From contig CAZQWH010000001.1 of NCBI GenBank assembly GCA_964597145.1, positions 15,696-79,695 of the forward strand: DNA of 64,000 bases. Direction: 5' to 3'. A program made the position numbers and the translations under genes. Below are positions 7,505 through 63,860 of the stretch, piece by piece. Within the stretch, counting starts at the first letter, position 1, and each line of letters opens with the position of its first letter. The notes below the pieces were generated by a model, which was given only the letters and a program-made list of their open reading frames with translations, did not search any database and had not been told where the DNA came from. The DNA is from an uncultured Candidatus Saccharibacteria bacterium (lineage in GTDB: Bacteria; Patescibacteriota; CAZHWT01).

Positions 7505-8596
7505 CTAGGAAGTAATCCGGCTTTTCTGGCGGGCGATAAGATACGATACAGTGAGGAAGGTAGCCACAATCACCACGCCAATAATCACAAAGGCGTAAAT
7601 CTTTTGTTTGCCTGAAAAAGCCAGGGCTAAGATGCCAAAGATGCCCGTTACCATCCAGTAGATTAAGACTATTTGCCGTTTAGACAAACCAAAATCGAGC
7701 AATTTATGATAAAGGTGGCTGCGGTCACCCCAAATTGGCAATTTACCTTGGGCCAACCGGCGGATAACGGTAATAATTCCATCAATCGTGGGAATACCCA
7801 ACACTAAAATAGCCGCAGCTAGTTTGGCTCCAGACAACATCGAGAGCGTTGCCAATAATAGCCCTAAAAATGACGAGGCACCATATCCAGGCAATTGTCT
7901 CTCCGGAGGAAAGTTGAACGGCAAAAATCCTAAGGCGCAACCAGCTAAAATAAAACACAGGGTAGCGGTGGTGTATTGCATGGGATTGCCGGCCGTAAAT
8001 TGCAACGCCACACCAGCTAAGGTAAAGGCCGCAATAGCCGAGATACCAGACAGTTGCCCTCCAATGCCTTTAGACCAATTGAGCGAGTTAATTAACCACA
8101 TAATCCACAGCAAAGCCAAACCATCAGCCAGGGGATGAATGGTAAACATCCAGCCTCCAGCCTCCAACTTCCAACTAAGTTGGTTTAAATAAATCAACCA
8201 GTTCTTATCGGTAACTGCCGCGAAAGGGTTGGTCACCCAGGGAATAGTAATCCCAGCCAAAATAATAATTACAGCCGAAATACCCAATGTGCCCAATCGA
8301 ACAATCGGATGAATGCTGCGCTTATCATCCATAGTCCCAACCAGCACGTTTAACCCAGCCGCCACAAGTATAGCCCACAATTGTGGCGTCATTGGCACCA
8401 ATAAAACGGACCCAATCACGAACGCCATATACATCGCAATCCCGCCTCCGCGCGGTAACGGCTTCGATTGCAAGACCCCTGGATGATCTGGCTTAGCGTA
8501 ATCGATTAAGTCAAAGTGCCGAGCCAAGCCTAGGGCGATGGGGGTAAAGAGCACCGTCAGGCCAAAAGCAAGCAGGGTGGCAAATGCATATTCCAT
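7505..8596 (-). CDS. glycosyltransferase family 4, polyprenyl-phosphate N-acetylhexosamine-1-phosphate transferase (WecA/MraY-like)
   Basis: MEYAFATLLAFGLTVLFTPIALGLARHFDLIDYAKPDHPGVLQSKPLPRGGGIAMY... is a typical MraY/WecA topology. I chose the ATG at 8594-8596 as the start rather than the longer track ORF, which begins at 8731. Confidence 0.75.
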   Translation of the reverse strand: MEYAFATLLAFGLTVLFTPIALGLARHFDLIDYAKPDHPGVLQSKPLPRGGGIAMYMAFVIGSVLLVPMTPQLWAILVAAGLNVLVGTMDDKRSIHPIVRLGTLGISAVIIILAGITIPWVTNPFAAVTDKNWLIYLNQLSWKLEAGGWMFTIHPLADGLALLWIMWLINSLNWSKGIGGQLSGISAIAAFTLAGVALQFTAGNPMQYTTATLCFILAGCALGFLPFNFPPERQLPGYGASSFLGLLLATLSMLSGAKLAAAILVLGIPTIDGIITVIRRLAQGKLPIWGDRSHLYHKLLDFGLSKRQIVLIYWMVTGIFGILALAFSGKQKIYAFVIIGVVIVATFLTVSYLIARQKSRITS

Positions 8597-8754
8597 AGAC
8601 TTTAAGTATAGCAGGCATAGAATAGAAATTGAGGGTAAAGCCTGCCAATAATTACCCCCAGCCCCAAAGCCAACCTCAAGCTCACCCCACCCACTCCATC
8701 TCAACCACCGTATCCGAGAATACCCAAACAAAACAATTCATCACAAATTTTAAA

Positions 8755-8821
8755 TCAAGCAACCTAGGTTCAAACACATTTAACCTCGGGGGTTAAACAG
8801 CTTTGAACCTAGGTTGCTTGA
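8755..8821. repeat. solo REPIN-like palindromic element (arm-core-arm)
   Basis: Perfect 20-bp inverted arms tcaagcaacctaggttcaaa / tttgaacctaggttgcttga flank the core ttaacctcgggggttaaa. The same arm and core sequences flank the RAYT gene at 27847-28723. Confidence 0.7.
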
Positions 8822-8957
8822 TTGAGTTGAAATGGATAAGAATCCGAGGTTGCCTGGGAGGAGATAGTCAAGCAGCCAGCATTATTCATAATGGTGTTTA
8901 ATGAGCTATAGTGTAAGATGAGGGAGGGTTGAATGCACCAATTGAGAGGAGTACGTA

Positions 8958-9845
8958 ATGAAGATTAAAAAAGCGGTTATTCCTGCCGCTGGCATGGGGA
9001 CTCGATTCTTGCCTGCTACCAAATCGATGCCTAAAGAAATGTTGCCCGTATTAGATAAGCCGGTAATTCAATATGTGGTAGAAGATGCGGTTAGCGCTGG
9101 GGTGGAAGACGTCGTTATTGTAACCGGTTGGCACAAGCGGGCGATTGAAGACCACTTTGACTATCCGTTTGAATTATTAGAACGGTTAAAAGAAGCGGGA
9201 AAGCTAGATCAGCGCGAGGAATTAATGAAGATTGCTAACCTAGCCAATTTTATTTATCTGCGCCAAAAAGGCCACTTAGGCAATGCCACACCTATTCTAA
9301 ACGCCGCGCCGATTATGGGCGATGAGCCATTCCTGTGCCTGTGGGCCGATGATTTCTTTGTGGCCAGTCCAACGCGATCACAACAGCTCGTAACTGCGTA
9401 CCAAGAGTTTAAAACCCCCATCCTTTCCGCCATTCAAACCGACAACCCAGAAGATACGAAAAAGTATGCTTTTGTGGGCGGCGATGAAGTTCGACCTGGA
9501 GTAGTAAAAGTCCGGGAAATTGTCGAAAAGCCGGGGCCAAATCATAAACTCAGCAATCTTGGCATTGTCTCAGGCTATGTGTTTACCCCAGATTTTGTTC
9601 ACCATATGAGTGCGATTAAACCAACCAAAGGTCAGGAGCTAGTCTATGTTGAAGGGTTACAAAGCATGCTAGATGCCGGACTGCCTATCTATGCTATTCA
9701 AATTACCAATGGTCGGTATTATGACTGCGGAAATAAATTAGAGTATCTAAAAGCCAATATTGAACTAGGCCTAAACCGAAAAGACTTTAGCAGTGAGTTG
9801 CGGGAATATTTAACTGGACTAAAAATAAAAAACGCTACTAAATAA
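8958..9845 (+). CDS. galU: UTP--glucose-1-phosphate uridylyltransferase
   Basis: MKIKKAVIPAAGMGTRFLPATKSMPKEMLPVLDKPVIQYVVEDA is a canonical GalU N-terminus. Confidence 0.9.
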   Translation: MKIKKAVIPAAGMGTRFLPATKSMPKEMLPVLDKPVIQYVVEDAVSAGVEDVVIVTGWHKRAIEDHFDYPFELLERLKEAGKLDQREELMKIANLANFIYLRQKGHLGNATPILNAAPIMGDEPFLCLWADDFFVASPTRSQQLVTAYQEFKTPILSAIQTDNPEDTKKYAFVGGDEVRPGVVKVREIVEKPGPNHKLSNLGIVSGYVFTPDFVHHMSAIKPTKGQELVYVEGLQSMLDAGLPIYAIQITNGRYYDCGNKLEYLKANIELGLNRKDFSSELREYLTGLKIKNATK

Positions 9846-10663: not shown

Positions 10664-12097
10664 ATGGATACTCCTGCGAGCCAGCCAGCTGTCAACCCAG
10701 CCCCTTCTACTCCTGCGCCCACCCCAACTCCAGTACCAGCATCAACCTCTGGAGGCGGATCAGGAAAGAAATTATTGTTTATAGCCGTTGGCGCCTTACT
10801 GCTGATCTTGATTTTGGGACTCGTAGCCTTCTACTTTTTGCGTGGTAACCAGGCCAACTCCAACAAACCAGTAACCCTAACCTATTGGGGATTATGGGAA
10901 TCGCCCGAAATCATGCAGCCGCTGATTGATCAATATCATCAAGACCATCCCAATGTCACCATCAACTATGAGCAACGCCCTATCGACCAGCACTATGCTA
11001 CAGTCAAGGCTCGGATTAGCCAGGCCAGCACCAGCAATAACCAGCCAGACATTGTACGGGTTCATAATTCTTGGGTTCCAGTTTTAGCTAATTATTTATC
11101 ACCGGTACCAGCTAGTGCCTACAGCCGCGAAGAATACGAATCAGTTTTTTATAACGTTACCAAAGATAACCTATTACTTAATGGTCAGTATTACGGCATT
11201 CCATTAATGATGGATGGTTTAGCCTTAGTTTATAATCAGGAGTTATTTAATACAGCTGGAATCTCGGCTCCGCCTTCTACCTGGGACGACGTGCGCCATG
11301 ATGCAGCCAAAATCACCCAACGTGACCAAAATGGTAACTTGACCATAGCCGGCATTGCCATGGGTAGCGCTAAGAATGTCGATCATTTTGCCGATATTAT
11401 TGGTCTGTTAATGGCTCAAAATAGCGTGGCCTTCAAAGACGGCAATGGCAATGTGGCTTTCGATAAATCTATTTCAGCCGACGGTCGCAACCTGGGCGCA
11501 GAAGCCCTAGCTTTCTTTAACTTATTCTCAACCGTAGAAAAAGGTTGGGACGACACCATGGAGCCATCTACGCTAGCTTTTAGTAAAGGTAAAGTCGGGA
11601 TGATTTTAATACCGTCGTGGCGGGTATTGTCATTGGTAGACCAAAACCCCGAATTGCAAATTAGGGTCGCACCTGTGCCACATTTAACCACCAACCAAAA
11701 AGTAGGCTATGCATCGTATTGGGTAGAGGCAGTGCCAGCCTCCAGCCCAAATCAAGCCGAAGCCTGGAAATTCTTACGCTACTTGTCAGAACGAGAGCAA
11801 CAATTAACCATGTTTAATGCTGCACAGCAAACCCGCAGCTTCGGTGAGCCCTATTCACGCAAAGATTTAGCTGACAGCTTATCCACCGATCCACTACTGG
11901 CACCGTTCGGCAGCCAGGCAGCTAACTACACCAGCTCATTATTTGCAACAAATACCGGTGCCGCCGAGTTAAATGGTGCCATCAATGCCGCCCTCGCCCA
12001 GGCCATAACCCAGGCTAAAACTACCGAATCGGCCGAAGCCGCCCTCACAACATTGGCCGAAAAAGTCACCTCCATCCTCACTCAAGAACGGCAATAA
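10664..12097 (+). CDS. ABC-transporter family-1 extracellular solute-binding protein with a P/T-rich N-terminal linker and TM anchor
   Basis: Pro/Thr/Ala-rich N-terminus, a TM helix, then a sugar-binding-protein-like core (LTYWGLWESPEIMQPLIDQY...). No permease or ATPase gene is adjacent. Confidence 0.7.
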   Translation: MDTPASQPAVNPAPSTPAPTPTPVPASTSGGGSGKKLLFIAVGALLLILILGLVAFYFLRGNQANSNKPVTLTYWGLWESPEIMQPLIDQYHQDHPNVTINYEQRPIDQHYATVKARISQASTSNNQPDIVRVHNSWVPVLANYLSPVPASAYSREEYESVFYNVTKDNLLLNGQYYGIPLMMDGLALVYNQELFNTAGISAPPSTWDDVRHDAAKITQRDQNGNLTIAGIAMGSAKNVDHFADIIGLLMAQNSVAFKDGNGNVAFDKSISADGRNLGAEALAFFNLFSTVEKGWDDTMEPSTLAFSKGKVGMILIPSWRVLSLVDQNPELQIRVAPVPHLTTNQKVGYASYWVEAVPASSPNQAEAWKFLRYLSEREQQLTMFNAAQQTRSFGEPYSRKDLADSLSTDPLLAPFGSQAANYTSSLFATNTGAAELNGAINAALAQAITQAKTTESAEAALTTLAEKVTSILTQERQ

Positions 12098-12537: not shown

Positions 12538-12600
12538 TTCTCCAGACTCCAGACTCCAGACTCCAGACTCCAGACTCCAGACTCCAGACTCCAGACTCCC
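12538..12600. repeat. heptanucleotide tandem repeat (TCCAGAC) x about 8.5
   Basis: Directly visible perfect 7-bp tandem array in the galU-SBP-groES intergenic region. Confidence 0.9.
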
Positions 12601-12732
12601 GCATCCCGACACCAGACACCCTCCCCATCATTCTAGAACCAAGCACAGCCAAGAGCTAAAATTCCTCCGCTATCCGCTATCCGCTATTTCCAACCTTATA
12701 CGCTGCAATCCAACAGACTCAACTCTCGCCTC

Positions 12733-13159: not shown

Positions 13160-14914
<1,755 letters not shown>

Positions 14915-15378: not shown

Positions 15379-16302
15379 TTAGTAGTATTTATGCAAGGTA
15401 AACTTTTTAGGTTGTCTGGGTGGGAAAAGTACCTCAATGTCCGGGTAATGGACATGGGTAGGAATGCGGCGAGTTGGTTCGTGGGCAATGGCTTGCTCTA
15501 TAATCCGGCCAACAGTTCCGGGCCGTTCTATGGGGGCTAAATGACCAACTTTAGGCATAAACTGAATCCGCGATTGGGGAATATGCTCAGCTAACATGAC
15601 TTGGGTTTTAATTGGCGCCACAATATCTGTTTCCCCAGCCAAAATAAAGGTTGGCACCGTGACTTTTTGAGCATAGGCATAAAACGGTGCAGCCAAAAAG
15701 CTTTCCAGGCATTCCATAACCACCTGCGGTCGTTGCTCTCGGGAATTTCTGATACCGAGCATCATTAATTCTAGCTTGCGCTTACGACTAACCGTCTTAA
15801 TGGTCACTAAAGACGACACAATTTCAATCAGAGGCGAAGCAAGCCAAGCCTTCCTCCAGCTCGGTGGCAGCTTTTGGCCGATGGCCAATTGGAACTGAGC
15901 CAACGTTTGGCTAAGCGAACGAAATGGTATAGCTGGAGAAATTAAAATAAGATGGTTCAACGATTTAGGATAAAGCGAGGCAAAAACCAGCGAGATCGAA
16001 GCCCCATACGAATGGCCAATCAAATCTACGGTTGGGCGATTAAGCGCGGTCAGAAATCGCTGAATAAAGTGGGCATAATTTTTAATTGTATGTGACTGAT
16101 GGGTAAATGACTGGGACCTGCCATAGCCAGGCAAGTCAAGCAGAATCGTGCAATAATCTTGAAAATAATCGGATAGTTCAGTTAAGGCCTTGTGATTGCC
16201 TTTAAATCCATGCACAAACACCATCGTTTGCACCAGATCGGGATTCCGCATCCAGTAATATACTTTTACTCCATCAATAATAATTGAGTGCCTAGTCAGC
16301 AT
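15379..16302 (-). CDS. alpha/beta-hydrolase fold protein
   Basis: MVFVHGFKGN...GHSYGASISL (GxSxG nucleophile elbow). I chose the ATG at 16300-16302 as the start. Confidence 0.7.
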   Translation of the reverse strand: MLTRHSIIIDGVKVYYWMRNPDLVQTMVFVHGFKGNHKALTELSDYFQDYCTILLDLPGYGRSQSFTHQSHTIKNYAHFIQRFLTALNRPTVDLIGHSYGASISLVFASLYPKSLNHLILISPAIPFRSLSQTLAQFQLAIGQKLPPSWRKAWLASPLIEIVSSLVTIKTVSRKRKLELMMLGIRNSREQRPQVVMECLESFLAAPFYAYAQKVTVPTFILAGETDIVAPIKTQVMLAEHIPQSRIQFMPKVGHLAPIERPGTVGRIIEQAIAHEPTRRIPTHVHYPDIEVLFPPRQPKKFTLHKYY

Positions 16303-19638: not shown

Positions 19639-19765
19639 GCAGTTAGCGCTTTTGAGCTTTGCGTTGTGGCTTTACGTCTTTAAATTTGAGTTTTGACCTT
19701 GTAACCTGTCAAAAGCATGTTGTCTAGTATATGTTTTCTATCTATCTGAGTTAAATAGGGTTAAT

Positions 19766-19790
19766 TATATAATATATTATATAATTCTTT
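19766..19790. promoter_or_regulatory. AT-rich perfect palindrome TTAATTATATAATATATTATATAAT (promoter-like element family, copy 1)
   Basis: Identical 25-mers occur at 42686-42710 and 56661-56685. An interrupted copy lies at 63615-63625 / 63693-63702. Confidence 0.6.
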
Positions 19791-19796
19791 TTTTCG

Positions 19797-20855
19797 TTAT
19801 TTCAGGCCGAGCTGGGCTAGCTTTTGGTGGTATTTTTTCATTATTTCCGATTGATAGTCGTGGGGGTGAAAGGCTAGGCGGTTGGGCTGGATGGTTTCTT
19901 TGGTGGGTTGGCGCATGATGCGCTGCTGGAATTTGTGGGCAAGACTGTCAAGCCAACTCAGGATGCGGGATGCGGTGAACAGTGACGAGTGACGAGTGAC
20001 GAGTGACGAGGTGAGGGGGGTGTCGTCATCCTGAACTTGATTCAGGATCTGGAGATTGGGGTGTTTGTAGAGGCTAGATCCTGAAGCGAGTTCAGGGTGA
20101 TAATGCATTTCGGTCAATGGGATGCGGGGGGTCGGAGGTCGGAGGTCGGAGGCGGATGAGCGGCTTGGGTACCTAGAAGGCTGAAGGCTGAAGGCTGAAG
20201 GCTGGATTTGGGAGGTTGGGAAATTGGGGAGAAAGTCGGTGATCCAGTTATTGATGTGGATATATTGTTCGTAGGTCTGGTGACGATTGAGGATGGGGAT
20301 GATGTGGGCTAGCTCGTTGGCGACGTAGAGGTTACAGTATTCTTCATTCAGATTGTCAATGGATAGCCACATATTGAGGCACAATTTATTATTGACGCGG
20401 CGGGGATCATCGGTTGGTTTGCGACGCCGACCGGTCAGGTTGAGAAGGAGGATGAGGATGAGGCGGGTCAGCCAGAGTCGGTTTCTGTCAGTGATAATCA
20501 GCAAATCAATATCATCGTCGGCTGTGGGGGTACCGCCGGCGACGGAGCCGGTGATGGCGACTAAATTAATCCAAGGGATTAGCCTAAAAATCCAGAGGGA
20601 TTTTTGGGCAGTTTGTAGTTTGTAGTTTGTAGTTTGTAGTTGGTATTTTTTTTGTTTTGCTAATTCGTTACGATTGTTTAATGTCCACGTGTTGTCTTGA
20701 TGTTTGAAGCTGGGTGACTGAACTTTGGACAGCCATTTGATATCTTTCAATTCATGTTGGATCAGATATTTTGATAATTCTTCGGTGGTGAGGGCCTGAT
20801 TGAATAGGTCAGCGTAAGCAAGAGTTTTAATGATGGCGGATTCGAGTTTATCCAT
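19797..20855 (-). CDS. Pol-beta-superfamily nucleotidyltransferase-domain protein carrying in-frame heptamer repeats and a 60-bp repeat element
   Basis: Canonical NTase motif ITGSVAGGTPTADDDIDLLIITD with a downstream acidic strand NMWLSID. The reading frame runs through (CAAACTA)x4, (GAAGGCT)x4, (GGTCGGA)x3 and (ACGAGTG)x3 tracts and through repeat copy E. Confidence 0.5.
   Translation of the reverse strand: MDKLESAIIKTLAYADLFNQALTTEELSKYLIQHELKDIKWLSKVQSPSFKHQDNTWTLNNRNELAKQKKYQLQTTNYKLQTAQKSLWIFRLIPWINLVAITGSVAGGTPTADDDIDLLIITDRNRLWLTRLILILLLNLTGRRRKPTDDPRRVNNKLCLNMWLSIDNLNEEYCNLYVANELAHIIPILNRHQTYEQYIHINNWITDFLPNFPTSQIQPSAFSLQPSRYPSRSSASDLRPPTPRIPLTEMHYHPELASGSSLYKHPNLQILNQVQDDDTPLTSSLVTRHSSLFTASRILSWLDSLAHKFQQRIMRQPTKETIQPNRLAFHPHDYQSEIMKKYHQKLAQLGLK
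20031..20099. repeat. GTCATCC...GATGAC-family composite palindrome, copy E (inside the NTase ORF)
   Basis: gtcatcctgaacttgattcaggatctgg...agatcctgaagcgagttcagggtgat. Confidence 0.6.
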
Positions 20856-23570: not shown

Positions 23571-23730
23571 GCGTGAGCATGGCGGGCAGGTCTTGGTTGG
23601 GTACAGAAGATTGCTTCATTACATTCGCAATCACGGACAATCTCTTCTACAGACTACAGACTACAGACGATAGACTAAAACCCCCGCCCGCCACGCAAGC
23701 CAGCTTGCTGGCGTTGCGGGCAGGTAAAAC

Positions 23731-24192: not shown

Positions 24193-24252
24193 GTCATTCT
24201 GAACTTGTTTCAGAATCCAATCACTTAGATCCTGGATCAAGTCCGGGATGAC
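24193..24252 (-). promoter_or_regulatory. ~60-bp composite-palindrome element, copy A, 21 nt upstream of the hsp20 start codon
   Basis: In the gene orientation it reads GTCATCCCGGACTTGATCCAGGATCTAAGTGATTGGATTCTGAAACAAGTTCAGAATGAC. It is near-identical to the copy upstream of dnaK. Confidence 0.7.
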
Positions 24253-27510: not shown

Positions 27511-27846
27511 TTAAGTTAAGAGTGGTAAGGTCTAAGTTAGAAGTAAAAACACCCCGCCCCTGAGCAGGGTGTTTTGTTGCACCTTAAGCAGAGAGCGGCT
27601 GCAGCATCGATAGCAACCAGTTAAGCTCATCAGCCCCAGCTTCATGATTGTGTGTCTCTCTCGGCTGGCGCAGATAGAGCAAACGCATGCCTCCGTTGCA
27701 GCTGATAACTAAACCAGTGGCAGCATCGAACTGTACATTGAGCGTGACTGCTGAAAAACAAGCGTAACTAGCTTCGCGAACTGGACGCATTTGGCGGTTA
27801 TGCCCTTCACAGAGATCAGCAGCATCGGCATAAGCGGTGTAAAATG

Positions 27847-28723
27847 TAACCCCGGGGGTTAAATGAGCTTGAACCTAGGTTGCCTGCTTATTTCGAATGA
27901 GAAACGAGTGTGTTAGTCAGAAACAACGCCCTGGCCTTCGTGCAATAAGTGTTCAAGAGACTTGAGACTCTTTTGATAGTCAGCTTGGTTTAAAACAAAG
28001 TTGCAATAAGAATGCACATCATTGAACATACTTAAAACTGGGGCAGTGGTAATAAACGAATTCTTGCCTTTTATATAAAGTGGCAATGACGACCAAGGAT
28101 AAGAAAGAATCCCATTTGGGGTTTTTACAAGATAGGCGGTTGACGGATTTAAGTGGATGTAGCGCGATACATGGCTCAGCTGCTCAGCAGTCTCTATTCG
28201 CACAGCCTTAAAGGATGGCAAAAATAGCGTGCCTTTACGTGCATGTTTCAAGTTATAGTAACGAGTATAACTATTTTGAAGTTGACCTAAATATCTTGAA
28301 ATACCATCGTCTTTAACTTGTCTGAGTAATAAGTGGAAGTGGTTAGGCATTATGCAGTAGGCAATCACTTCAACCAAGCGCGACGATGGACTCCAGTTTG
28401 CGCGTATAGCCGCCTGCTGTTCTGAATTAAGAGCTAAATATCGTGAAAAACTAATTGTATTTGCTCCATAGCAGTAAAACTCTAGGCCAGATAGTATTCT
28501 GCGATATTCACGCAAGTCAGTAAATGTTTGACGCTCATCCTGTCCGCGATTAAAAACATGGTATATTTGCCCGTTGCATATAGGATAAATTCTTCTCATA
28601 CGACCCCCAATTAAGTACAACATGGGCAGTGCAGTGAATAACATCAACATATACGCCTCTGCATGCTGATTGTCAAAGTAAACAACCAACCTAGGTTCAA
28701 AGCTGTTTAACCTCGGGGGTTAA
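27847..28723. mobile_element. RAYT/IS200-like element: Y1 HUH transposase flanked by inverted REP-like hairpin repeats
   Basis: Left end 27847-27886 (taaccccgggggttaaatgagcttgaacctaggttgcctg) and right end 28684-28723 (caacctaggttcaaagctgtttaacctcgggggttaaac) are reverse complements of each other. They enclose the transposase gene. Confidence 0.7.
27913..28599 (-). CDS. REP-associated tyrosine transposase (RAYT) / IS200-IS605-family TnpA (Y1 HUH)
   Basis: IYHVFNRG...YCIMPNHFHLLLRQ (HUH motif) ...SYTRYYN (catalytic Tyr region). Start chosen at MRRIYP. The track ORF extends to 28689. Confidence 0.75.
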   Translation of the reverse strand: MRRIYPICNGQIYHVFNRGQDERQTFTDLREYRRILSGLEFYCYGANTISFSRYLALNSEQQAAIRANWSPSSRLVEVIAYCIMPNHFHLLLRQVKDDGISRYLGQLQNSYTRYYNLKHARKGTLFLPSFKAVRIETAEQLSHVSRYIHLNPSTAYLVKTPNGILSYPWSSLPLYIKGKNSFITTAPVLSMFNDVHSYCNFVLNQADYQKSLKSLEHLLHEGQGVVSD

Positions 28724-28976
28724 ACAGTTATTTCATATTGTTTTTACGAATTGAAGGTTTTAGTCATGATGACTGTGTATTTAGTGATCTAATCTGGTCA
28801 CCAAATGCATGACGTAAATCCCTAGAAATTGCCAGATTGCTGTGGTATAGTGCGGCTGGTTGTAATTGTTTGCTTTTACAACGTTTCACCTTGAAAAAAC
28901 GAATACACAAAAACCCATCCAAGTAATACCATGAATGGGTTTGAGAATAACGTAATGTATTTGTGTGCCAATTACA

Positions 28977-37998: not shown

Positions 37999-38059
37999 TC
38001 GTCATCCCGGACTTGATCCGGGATCTAAGTGATTGGATCCTGAAACAAGTTCAGGATGA
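37999..38059 (+). promoter_or_regulatory. ~60-bp composite-palindrome element, copy B, 31 nt upstream of the dnaK start codon
   Basis: GTCATCCCGGACTTGATCCGGGATCTAAGTGATTGGATCCTGAAACAAGTTCAGGATGAC. It has the same orientation as copy A relative to the downstream gene. Confidence 0.7.
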
Positions 38060-38090
38060 CAATAGGAAATAATTAAAGGAGGAACTTTGT

Positions 38091-40021: not shown

Positions 40022-40168
40022 CGTCATTGCGAGGAGCAGAGCGACGAAGTAATCTTGATAGGCTTTGTGTCATCCTGAATTTAGTTCAGGATCAGGCATT
40101 AGATGCTGAAACTAGTTCAGCATGACATTGGGTTTAGGTAGATTGCCGCGCTTCACTCGCAATGACCA
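40022..40168 (+). promoter_or_regulatory. nested repeats upstream of dnaJ: GTCATTGCGAG / CTCGCAATGAC arms enclosing copy C (40069-40126) of the 60-bp element
   Basis: Copy C: gtcatcctgaatttagttcaggatcaggcattagatgctgaaactagttcagcatgac. The outer arms match the 19543-19638 element. Confidence 0.65.
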
Positions 40169-42669: not shown

Positions 42670-42712
42670 TACAGAGATAAATCATATTAATTATATAATA
42701 TATTATATAATT
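42670..42712 (+). promoter_or_regulatory. promoter-like element ACAGAGATAA-N8-TTAATTATATAATATATTATATAAT (copy 2)
   Basis: Same composite as at 56643-56685 and, degenerately, 46729-46752. Confidence 0.55.
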
Positions 42713-52009: not shown

Positions 52010-52046
52010 CAGATTTGTCATCCCGGACTAGATCTGGGATCTAGCG
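52010..52046 (+). repeat. partial copy D of the GTCATCC...composite palindrome (first hairpin only), upstream of rnj
   Basis: gtcatcccggactagatctgggatctagcgtc. Confidence 0.5.
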
Positions 52047-56642: not shown

Positions 56643-56685
56643 CAGAGATAATTTAGATTAATTATATAATATATTATATAATACT
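56643..56685 (+). promoter_or_regulatory. promoter-like element ACAGAGATAA-N8-TTAATTATATAATATATTATATAAT (copy 3)
   Basis: Identical palindrome 25-mer, with the ACAGAGATAA box upstream. Confidence 0.55.
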
Positions 56686-59083: not shown

Positions 59084-59314
59084 GTTTTTGGTAGTTAGTA
59101 GTTGGTATATAGTATTTAGCAAAAGCAACTATCAGCAAATATACGGCTGATGGACAGCAATTAAATCTTCCTAGATACTAGATACAAAATACTAGATACC
59201 GAAAACCGGAGACTTCTTCGGTAGCAAGTAGTAAGATTTTGCAAAAAGGCATAGTTTGCCGTTAAACTTAACTATCTGCTAGCTACTAACTACTAAAAAT
59301 CGGAGATTTTTATT

Positions 59315-63374: not shown

Positions 63375-63860
63375 AGGAAAAGGTCGACAATGAAAAAGGG
63401 ATTGCGGCTTTGTGGTCATTTCTTTACCAACCGAATGCAACATATGCTCCGCCGAGCTCCAATAAAAAGGTTATAGAGAAAGTCATAAGCTCATCCTTAA
63501 AATAGTCATCCACTGGGCGAAAAAAGCAAAGATTAAAACTAAGACCCAAAACACTGTCCTCTTAATGCTCACTACGAATCACAGAGTTATTTAGGGTTAA
63601 TTATATAATTGCCACAATAGGGTATACATCCAATACCCTATTGTCATCCTCAATTAAATTGAGGAACCGCCATTATATAATTAAATTTATTAATAAATAC
63701 TAAATACCAGATGCCATTTACTAGCCACCACATCAGCTTTAGCCAATGCCTGCCTGCTAGCCAAATTGACGGTTGCAATGCTACAATGTAACAAGATATA
63801 GTAACTATCCAACCAAGTAGTAACTCTGAGTTAATTTATTAAAAAGTTGAAGGAACTGCC

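Follow-up and report, generated by a model that had tools for sequence, protein, structure and literature searches.

We analysed a 64-kb window (the whole stretch of 64,000 nucleotides) from contig CAZQWH010000001.1 of an uncultured Candidatus Saccharibacteria bacterium and describe here a compact unit at 27846–28723. In it, two bipartite inverted repeats, each with a hairpin, enclose a gene for a class-2 Y1 HUH endonuclease/transposase. The encoded protein belongs to the lineage of the REP-associated tyrosine transposases (RAYT; REP, repetitive extragenic palindrome) and of the related TIRYT proteins. On one side, the response-regulator gene, which the initial annotation had placed immediately beside the insertion, ends 335 nt from the repeat and is nearby rather than adjacent. 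A gene for the penicillin-binding protein PBP1A also lies in the neighbourhood of the unit, and the nearest named relatives of its product are from candidate division WWE3 or Patescibacteria (~52% identity).

An intact RAYT-lineage gene for a Y1 HUH enzyme

The open reading frame (ORF) lies on the minus strand (27913..28599), with its ATG at 28599 and its stop codon at 27913–27915, and comprises 228 codons plus stop. It is the only copy of the gene in the 64-kb window. The protein carries the motifs YHVFNRG, MPNHFHLL and SRYIHLNP; NHFH is the HUH motif, and the catalytic tyrosine lies within SRYIHLNP. Pfam Y1_Tnp (PF01797) matched with 37.1 bits at a gathering score of 23, and the sole NCBIfam match was the equivalog REP_Tyr_transpos (NF047646; E = 1.8e-13, 50.6 bits). 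Searched by sequence alone, relatives in the PDB were marginal (4ER8 TnpAREP, E = 0.13; ISDra2 TnpA, E = 0.4). An AlphaFold (AF2) model built from 26 homologues (pLDDT 88, pTM 0.85) had as its top Foldseek match 4ER8_A, the E. coli TnpAREP with a REP hairpin (E = 8e-8; target-normalised TM 0.70 over 186 columns), with the TnpA proteins of ISDra2, IS608 and IS200 ranking below it (E ~1e-5 to 1e-3). The C-terminal region (residues 152–223) is helical in the model and contains YPWSS.

Across the 26-homologue alignment, in which the proteins measure 222–251 amino acids, the segments YH..NRG, MPNHFH, QNS, FK, SRYIHLNP, Y.WSS and YQ are invariant. The Pfam and NCBIfam matches together with the fold bear out the earlier proposal that the ORF is an intact RAYT-type Y1 HUH gene.

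A Y1_Tnp match is also what an autonomous insertion sequence (IS) of the IS200/IS605 type would give, in which an ordinary TnpA moves the whole unit via a single-stranded circle and gene-less copies are decayed or miniature derivatives. The HUH/tyrosine core is indeed shared with IS608 and ISDra2. However, the tyrosine motif here is YIHLNP, that is, of the Y---NP type that defines class 2 (the RAYT side), and not the Y---Q of IS200 (PMC6006769); the protein has 228 amino acids rather than ~150, its fold is nearer to TnpAREP than to the TnpA of IS608 or ISDra2, and there is no tnpB and no large ORF adjoining the gene. Together with the evidence on ends and copies given below, we regard an autonomous IS200/IS605-type element as quite unlikely.

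Inverted hairpin repeats enclose the gene

The gene is bounded by two inverted ends of ~40 bp, recovered by a repeat finder as a 50-nt inverted pair with 76% complementarity, in agreement with the hairpin-containing inverted flanks first noticed at this site. Each end combines an outer hairpin with an inner arm that contains a CCTAGG box. On the downstream side of the gene lies the D-type terminal repeat (27846..27887; gTAACCcCGGGGGTTAA-atgagc-TTGAACCTAGGTTGC), whose outer part is the hairpin core gTAACC-CCGGG-GGTTAa (27846–27862), followed by the spacer atgagc and the inner arm (27869–27883; CCTAGG at 27874–27879). The U-type terminal repeat on the upstream side (28684..28727; cCAACCTAGGTTCAA-agctg-TTTAACCTCGGGGGTTAAA) begins with its inner arm (28686–28700; CCTAGG at 28690–28695), and a short spacer leads to the outer hairpin CTGTTTAACC-TCGGG-GGTTAAACAG (28703–28727) with a 17-bp core at 28707–28723. 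Folded as single-stranded DNA (ssDNA), the U-type end forms a strong hairpin with a 10-bp stem (-10.7 kcal/mol, z = -4.6), and it aligns without internal gaps with the ends of homologous units from other genomes.

Allowing up to three mismatches, the 17-mer core was found at three loci of the window only (6 strand-matches vs 0.28 expected; equalled in none of 100 shuffles). The exact arm sequence is confined to the same three loci, the two ends of the unit at 27846 and 28684 and a site at 8753–8823. Blast searches of the flanks against the window yielded nothing further convincing, Rfam gave no match across the whole window, and no compositional anomaly was seen.

Hairpins near both ends and a conserved sequence beside the hairpin that could guide cleavage are features of IS200/IS605 elements as well. 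The true inverted repeats at the ends of the unit, however, are unlike the ends of that family.

Gene-less copies and their topology

The site at 8753..8823 is a gene-less doublet of 71 bp, located between the divergent ORFs 7505–8731 (minus) and 8958–9845 (plus). It forms an arm-hairpin-arm palindrome with 33-nt arms that are 88% complementary: a D-type arm on the left (CCTAGG at 8763–8768), a single shared hairpin core in the centre (8780–8796) and a U-type arm on the right (CCTAGG at 8808–8813). The initial annotation had described such a palindrome built from the same modules, and this description was confirmed. As ssDNA the doublet folds with -28.5 kcal/mol (z = -11.7), and its right half matches the inverted upstream repeat of the gene at 26 of 26 positions.

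Further gene-less copies were found elsewhere. In genome L012, which encodes a homologue, two singlets (11388–11431 and 15529–15560) are 86–87% identical to the upstream repeat of that genome, and the similarity extends into the promoter spacer; the second precedes a coaBC-like gene by 79 nt. A complete arm-core-arm' doublet lies upstream of a paralogous gene of the source organism, P0015 (contig L013, 6560–6625). The third instance, a doublet of the family architecture on the metagenome contig L021 (343–395), lies in frame within an ORF of 830 amino acids resembling O-antigen ligases, and 5 of 9 homologues (~50% identical) have a gap of ~20 residues at its position. Two other O-antigen-ligase homologues, P0393 and P0394, carry a different insert of ~18 residues (SPHPIPPLGKGRETEGEV) in the same loop, corresponding to L021 residues ~88–110, and this loop may be a hotspot for small DNA insertions. 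By tblastn, gene remnants were not found beside any of the gene-less copies. Judged from these copies, the modules do spread without the gene, at low frequency.

Pattern searches were made in larger collections, neither of which includes the source genome. The arm-plus-core pattern gave two chance matches only in the GTDB genomes (an archaeon and a member of the Rikenellaceae), and a longer pattern had no match in the JGI metagenomes. The strict doublet pattern CCTAGGTGTC-N18-44-GACACCTAGG matched 10 loci in all JGI metagenomes, of which L021 is the sole one with the family architecture; the remaining loci are unrelated palindromes.

The spacer between hairpin and arm differs by end, with xAGC in the U type and TGxx or TAxx in the D type, and each doublet has a single hairpin that is shared by a D half and a U half. 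Such an arrangement corresponds to a right-end/left-end junction, as expected of an IS200/IS605-type circle, or to a 'double-foot' REP (subclass 2.4, PMC6006769). Like the latter, the doublets at 8753–8823, L013 6560–6625 and L021 343–395 have one hairpin with an inverted tag on both sides. Unlike it, the tag here is CCTAGG at 13–14 nt from the foot and not GT[AG]G at the foot, and the two spacers differ systematically (U-type xAGC vs D-type).

Two simple origins of the doublets were ruled out. Fold-back (self-primed) synthesis is excluded because the two spacers of a doublet are non-complementary, each matching the end-specific spacer of the gene's repeats. Internal deletion of a whole unit would leave the parts in the order hairpin-arm-arm-hairpin and not arm-hairpin-arm. 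We also considered a CTAG 'guide' beside the hairpin that would pair with the CTAG of CCTAGG; this fits L006 and L012, with the spacer ACTAGC, but it is not conserved in the repeats of the window and is speculation.

The bipartite ends are conserved among homologues

Relatives of the protein number more than 5,000 in a 90% clustered database, the best being ~50% identical and ~222 amino acids long. Where these best relatives are named, they come from Levy-, Davies- or Gottesmanbacteria or from Patescibacteria. In a library clustered at 50% identity there were 294 representatives with E <= 1e-30 and 4,867 with E <= 1e-10, and on viral contigs only relatives of 28–30% identity were detected.

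We examined seven homologue loci from long contigs. Homologues of ~50% identity occur in six other genomes of the candidate phyla radiation (CPR; L003, L004, L006, L008, L011 and L012), and the gene neighbourhoods of these and of L013 are unrelated, with no synteny between genomes. The same bipartite ends were present at every examined homologue locus except that of P0109 (L014). Upstream, the order is hairpin, a spacer of 6–7 nt, TTGACA, CCTAGG, ~26 nt and the ATG; downstream, the stop codon is followed after 1–8 nt by CCTAGG, the arm, the spacer and the hairpin. The inverted arrangement of the flanking repeats is shared by the unit of the window, L003, L004, L006, L008, L012 and L013. In L011, a genome of the Levybacteria type, the ends are direct rather than inverted because the downstream D-type module (10672–10708) is flipped, with the hairpin by the stop codon and the arm outside.

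For the repeats themselves we aligned 22 repeat halves, oriented alike, from eight genomes and the L021 contig. Their alignment has no internal gaps and shows ACC-N5-GGT and CCTAGG as invariant elements at fixed spacing, with the CCTAGG box preceded by TTGAMA and located 13–14 nt inward of the hairpin. The outer stem pairs covary: 4 of the 7 pairs are changed on both sides, amounting to 22 cells. Stem pairing is 85.7%, whereas shuffles give 73% and sliding the partner no more than 51%; none of 500 shuffles reached the observed pairing or covariation score. A stem that drifts and still pairs, beside an invariant box, would be expected as the trace of hairpin-recognising Y1 enzymes. A REP tetranucleotide at the hairpin base, which the initial annotation had suggested looking for, was not borne out, as GT[AG]G occurs at 1 of 44 foot positions in these halves. 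The motif GGGGWSAS was found at none of 44, on either strand.

The upstream repeat usually supplies the -35 box of the gene in the homologues. In L006 and L012, TTGACA or TTGAAA in the arm is followed after 17 nt by TATGCT or TATCAT, ending 6 nt before the ATG, and the same arrangement can be seen by eye in L003, L004 and L011. In the window the upstream arm reads TTGAAC and the gene is 86 nt away; a weak promoter-like pair, TTGACA-17 nt-TATATG, may be discerned by eye on the minus strand between the inner arm and the ATG (28648..28676), for which a consensus promoter scan makes no call.

These promoter elements could mean that the repeats serve to regulate a domesticated gene, the upstream one as operator and promoter and the downstream one as insulating hairpin, and that the gene-less copies are further sites bound by the same protein as a DNA-binding regulator. 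Such a role would suit the outward-facing hairpin at 28701–28729, which is terminator-like by score, the position of the solo doublet at 8753–8823 in a divergent promoter region and that of the second L012 singlet before the coaBC-like gene. However, the catalytic residues are all invariant across the family, the stem covaries as its sequence changes, a sign that structure and not sequence is recognised, a coding region contains one doublet in frame, and the downstream module is flipped in L011. On balance, a purely regulatory function of the repeats seems very unlikely.

Three divergent paralogues in the source organism

The initial annotation had suggested checking for a single RAYT copy; the gene is not single-copy. 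The source organism has at least three divergent paralogues including the gene in the window: P0241, which is the product of this gene with a longer start, P0015 and P0109 were all assigned to one NCBI contig of 244,332 bp, which also encodes a protein 100% identical to the PBP1A of the window, and P0015 and P0109 are 52% and 51% identical to the protein from the window. The latter two are carried on the Logan contigs L013 and L014, respectively, neither of which overlaps the window.

At P0015 the arms and stem are nearly as in the element of the window and the loop differs (TCAAA/TTTGA); downstream, arm-core and gene end overlap. Around P0109 lies a distinct 27-nt inverted repeat, CCAAGTGGTTATC-CCTTGACAC (CCAAGTGGTTATC-yCyTGACAC; L014 5465–5491 and 6236–6262), which keeps the TTGACA box and has neither the ACC-N5-GGT hairpin nor CCTAGG. 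In the window, CCAAGTGGTTATC does not occur above chance.

Relatives lack the unit at the orthologous site

The order of the genes for histidine kinase, response regulator, MerR and PBP1A is found in two relatives, L029/L027 (PBP1A protein 86% identical) and L030 (65%). Their spacers between the response-regulator and MerR genes, of 223 nt in L029/L027 and 641 nt in L030, lack the gene, the repeats and any CCTAGG. Homology between the window and the relatives stops at ~27587 and restarts at ~28807, leaving an extra segment (27588..28806) that is absent from the relatives' spacer and consists of the repeat-bounded unit, 258 nt that precede it at lower coordinates and 83 nt that follow it. Because the site is empty in both the closer relative and the outgroup, a gain in the lineage of the window is the parsimonious explanation, and the unit looks recently inserted rather than vertically fixed. 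Within the low-coordinate flank, between the response-regulator gene and the unit, an ORF of 68 amino acids (27584–27790, minus) was annotated as a gene in the Logan assemblies; it is absent in the relatives, has no Pfam match and is unsupported.

Target-site duplications or terminal repeats of the 1.2-kb extra segment were sought; the 8-nt overlap is unconvincing and the extra flanks are unique. Strain polymorphism of the unit was not seen: seven Logan assemblies of the organism contain the identical unit in the same context with 0 mismatches.

Presence and absence between relatives and unrelated neighbourhoods of homologues would again be compatible with an IS200/IS605-type element. There are, however, no near-identical copies and no identical multicopy insertions of the unit, the paralogues being only ~50% identical and all seven sampled assemblies showing one context.

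The empty sites also bear on the reading given in the initial annotation, a REPIN-RAYT system (REPIN, REP doublet forming a hairpin). In its classical, domesticated form a single-copy, immobile and vertically inherited RAYT maintains REPIN doublets throughout the genome, and the flanking repeats would be two members of that population. The enzyme, the inverted hairpin repeats and the gene-less doublet of the same sequence support this reading. So do TnpAREP as the top structural match, the complete doublet upstream of P0015, the strong conservation of the family with its invariant motifs and fixed length of ~222 amino acids, and the related repeats of two paralogues that differ in their loop, recalling one REP family per RAYT (PMC6006769). 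The GT[AG]G tag, however, is missing, the NCBIfam score falls short of the cut-off of 80, ~83 kb of this genome contain one gene-less copy and other genomes 0–2 per 20 kb, the strict doublet pattern yielded one convincing case in all JGI metagenomes, and three paralogues lie on one contig. The empty orthologous sites of two relatives and the lack of synteny among genomes speak against an immobile RAYT kept by vertical descent. Such systems have tens to hundreds of REP or REPIN copies across the genome, against the one gene-less copy in the ~83 kb covered here. The tag, the single-copy gene and the vertical fixation did not stand, and we consider a classical REPIN-RAYT system unlikely.

Relation to TIRtrons and other known systems

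The closest described kind of element appears to be the TIRtron with its TIRYT gene (Di Nocera et al. 2013, PMC3733652), which is equivalent to TnpAY1 subclass 2.1 (Quentin et al. 2018, PMC6006769) and to RAYT group 1 (Bertels et al. 2017, PMC5581495); this assignment is based on motifs and length. Proteins of subclass 2.1 have NH[YF]H or NHVH and Y[IV]HLNP or YIELNP and a median length of 238 amino acids (PMC6006769). A TIRYT is a RAYT-like gene flanked by terminal inverted repeats, some of them self-complementary, instead of GTAG REPs, and some of these repeats form moderately abundant gene-less families including dimers (PMC3733652).

The likeness comprises a Y1 protein of ~220–240 amino acids with NH[YF]H and Y[IV]HLNP (NHFH and YIHLNP in the window), the terminal inverted repeats without GTAG around the gene, the few and divergent copies per genome and the small gene-less repeat families with dimers. 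The low copy number and low identity between copies that mark class 2 are seen in the three paralogues of ~50% identity, and we also count as a likeness that group 1 has the most IS-like distribution among the RAYT groups. In contrast to TIRtrons, the CPR ends lack GGGGWSAS, which is present in most but not all TIRYT repeats, and have a fixed hairpin-plus-CCTAGG module instead. Further differences are that Pfam finds no C-terminal helix-turn-helix (HTH), that the 'FQ/WQ' motif is F-L in the family of the window, that the promoter is embedded in the repeat, and that the CPR lineage with its ~1-Mb genomes lies outside those complete-genome surveys.

With the REPtrons of E. coli and Pseudomonas (TnpAREP, groups 2 and 3) and their REP, REPIN and BIME sequences, the unit shares the 4ER8 fold match, inverted palindromic flanks, gene-less doublets folding into long hairpins and paralogue-specific repeat variants. 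Unlike in REPtrons, the hairpin foot lacks GT[AG]G, copies in the DNA sampled appear to be fewer by orders of magnitude, and the gene is multi-copy, varies in presence between relatives and scores below the NCBIfam equivalog cut-off.

A proposed mechanism

From the homology, the fold, the conserved architecture, the covariation, the gene-less copies and the presence/absence between relatives, we propose that 27846–28723 is probably a compact unit of the TIRtron type, whose protein would cleave and mobilise ssDNA guided by the hairpins. Hairpin-guided cleavage and rejoining of ssDNA were demonstrated for TnpAREP and for IS608 and ISDra2 TnpA (PMC8266576), and by analogy with these enzymes the protein would bind a hairpin that extrudes while the DNA is transiently single-stranded. 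One strand would then be cut and rejoined by means of the YIHLNP tyrosine and a metal site at NHFH, at a position set by the neighbouring conserved sequence, for which the CCTAGG/CTAG box is the best candidate. Repeat modules might thereby be copied or moved, also in trans, and the whole unit at least occasionally. In the doublet at 8753–8823, one hairpin with a CCTAGG arm on each side would present the enzyme with a full substrate on either strand. The protein is likely to act on the modules as a hairpin-guided single-strand DNA nuclease/ligase, and we think that the whole unit behaves like a low-activity TIRtron.

Several observations speak against this interpretation. A palindrome with covarying halves could also be the binding site of a dimeric protein that binds double-stranded DNA, and for REPtrons it has been argued that the gene should stay in place because inverted ends are equivalent substrates on opposite strands (PMC8266576). 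By itself, the D-type end at 27846 forms a weak hairpin (z = -0.75, ssDNA folding). The NCBIfam score of 50.6 bits lies below the curated cut-off of 80, and a C-terminal HTH (Bac_DnaA_C, HTH_23 or HTH_28) was not detected, Pfam at E <= 1 returning Y1_Tnp alone. There is only one gene-less copy in ~83 kb of the source genome (the 64-kb window and ~19 kb more) and no extra copy within +/-10 kb in 5 of 6 other CPR genomes sampled; with so few copies, mobilisation in trans, if real, would be rare. The arm-hairpin-arm topology is unlike the leftover of a simple internal deletion. Finally, the DNA missing in the relatives is ~340 nt longer than the unit from repeat to repeat, with boundaries off the repeats, and the extra segment shows no clean target signature beyond a vague 8-nt alignment overlap. 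This excess and the missing signature mean that the insertion event is not attributable to the element's own chemistry.

Other repeats in the window

Three further repeat types were recognised in the window. A second palindromic family, GTCATCCTGAAC-TTGa-TTCAGGATC with an 8-bp stem, is commoner than the repeats of the unit. It occurs mostly as inverted doublets of ~60 nt, about one per 10 kb, in intergenic positions including both sides of dnaK (doublets at 20025–20101, 24193–24252, 38001–38060 and 40069–40126; singlets at 52017–52040 and 63643), and the relative L030 has a copy at 14681 between grpE and dnaK. The family is REPIN-like in form and unrelated to the repeats of all three RAYT-like genes.

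Tandem arrays with a period of 7 nt consist of differing units (CTCCAGA x11, AGTGACG, GGTCGGA, GAAGGCT, AGTTTGT and others) and lie at 12540–12617, 12666–12687, 13184–13208, 19981–20010, 20130–20156, 20176–20204, 20610–20649, 23647–23677 and 59171–59199. Several of them directly flank the GTCATCC hairpin doublet at 20025–20101, and in-frame stretches of the KLETGNWQLET type in the O-antigen-ligase-like ORF of L021 resemble these period-7 repeats. An AT-only palindromic 26-mer, TTAATTATATAATATATTATATAATT, is present in near-identical intergenic copies at 19761–19786, 42687–42712 and 56658–56683 and partially near 63599, and a conserved ACAGAGATAA-like stretch precedes it.

Implications for CPR genomes

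We found no paper linking RAYT, REPIN or TIRYT with CPR in a search of limited coverage, apart from one preprint that names the KEGG term for an archaeal locus, which agrees with the earlier impression that such a system is undescribed in this lineage. The kind of element is known; what appears to be new is a CPR-specific subfamily with its own bipartite ends, evidence for a recent gain of the unit and three paralogues in a very small genome. Class 2 TnpAY1 genes were reported mainly from large genomes and from none of the small Mollicute genomes (PMC6006769), and a CPR organism with three divergent paralogues departs from this bias. According to reviews there is no evidence of tnpAREP genes themselves moving (PMC8266576), and one of the paralogues, missing from the corresponding site of close relatives, departs from that view. 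The hairpin-plus-CCTAGG ends recur across Microgenomates-type genomes and add a class of repeats and mobile elements to CPR genomes, commonly considered poor in repeats. A defined substrate of ~45 nt and an enzyme of 222 amino acids would also provide a direct test system for DNA recognition and cutting by the poorly understood TIRYT or group 1 proteins.

A bolder and doubtful extension is that a CPR-wide subfamily (~300 clusters at 50% identity) still moves as whole units and sheds promoter-bearing hairpin modules between genes and, in frame, inside them. On this view, the order of right end, shared hairpin and left end in the doublets and their kept end-specific spacers would point to a joining reaction in or next to the hairpin, with a circle or junction as intermediate. 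If true, the joining chemistry at the hairpin would be nearer to Rep-type nicking than to the chemistry described for RAYTs, and the promoter-bearing modules would be a route to promoter rewiring in these tiny, streamlined genomes.

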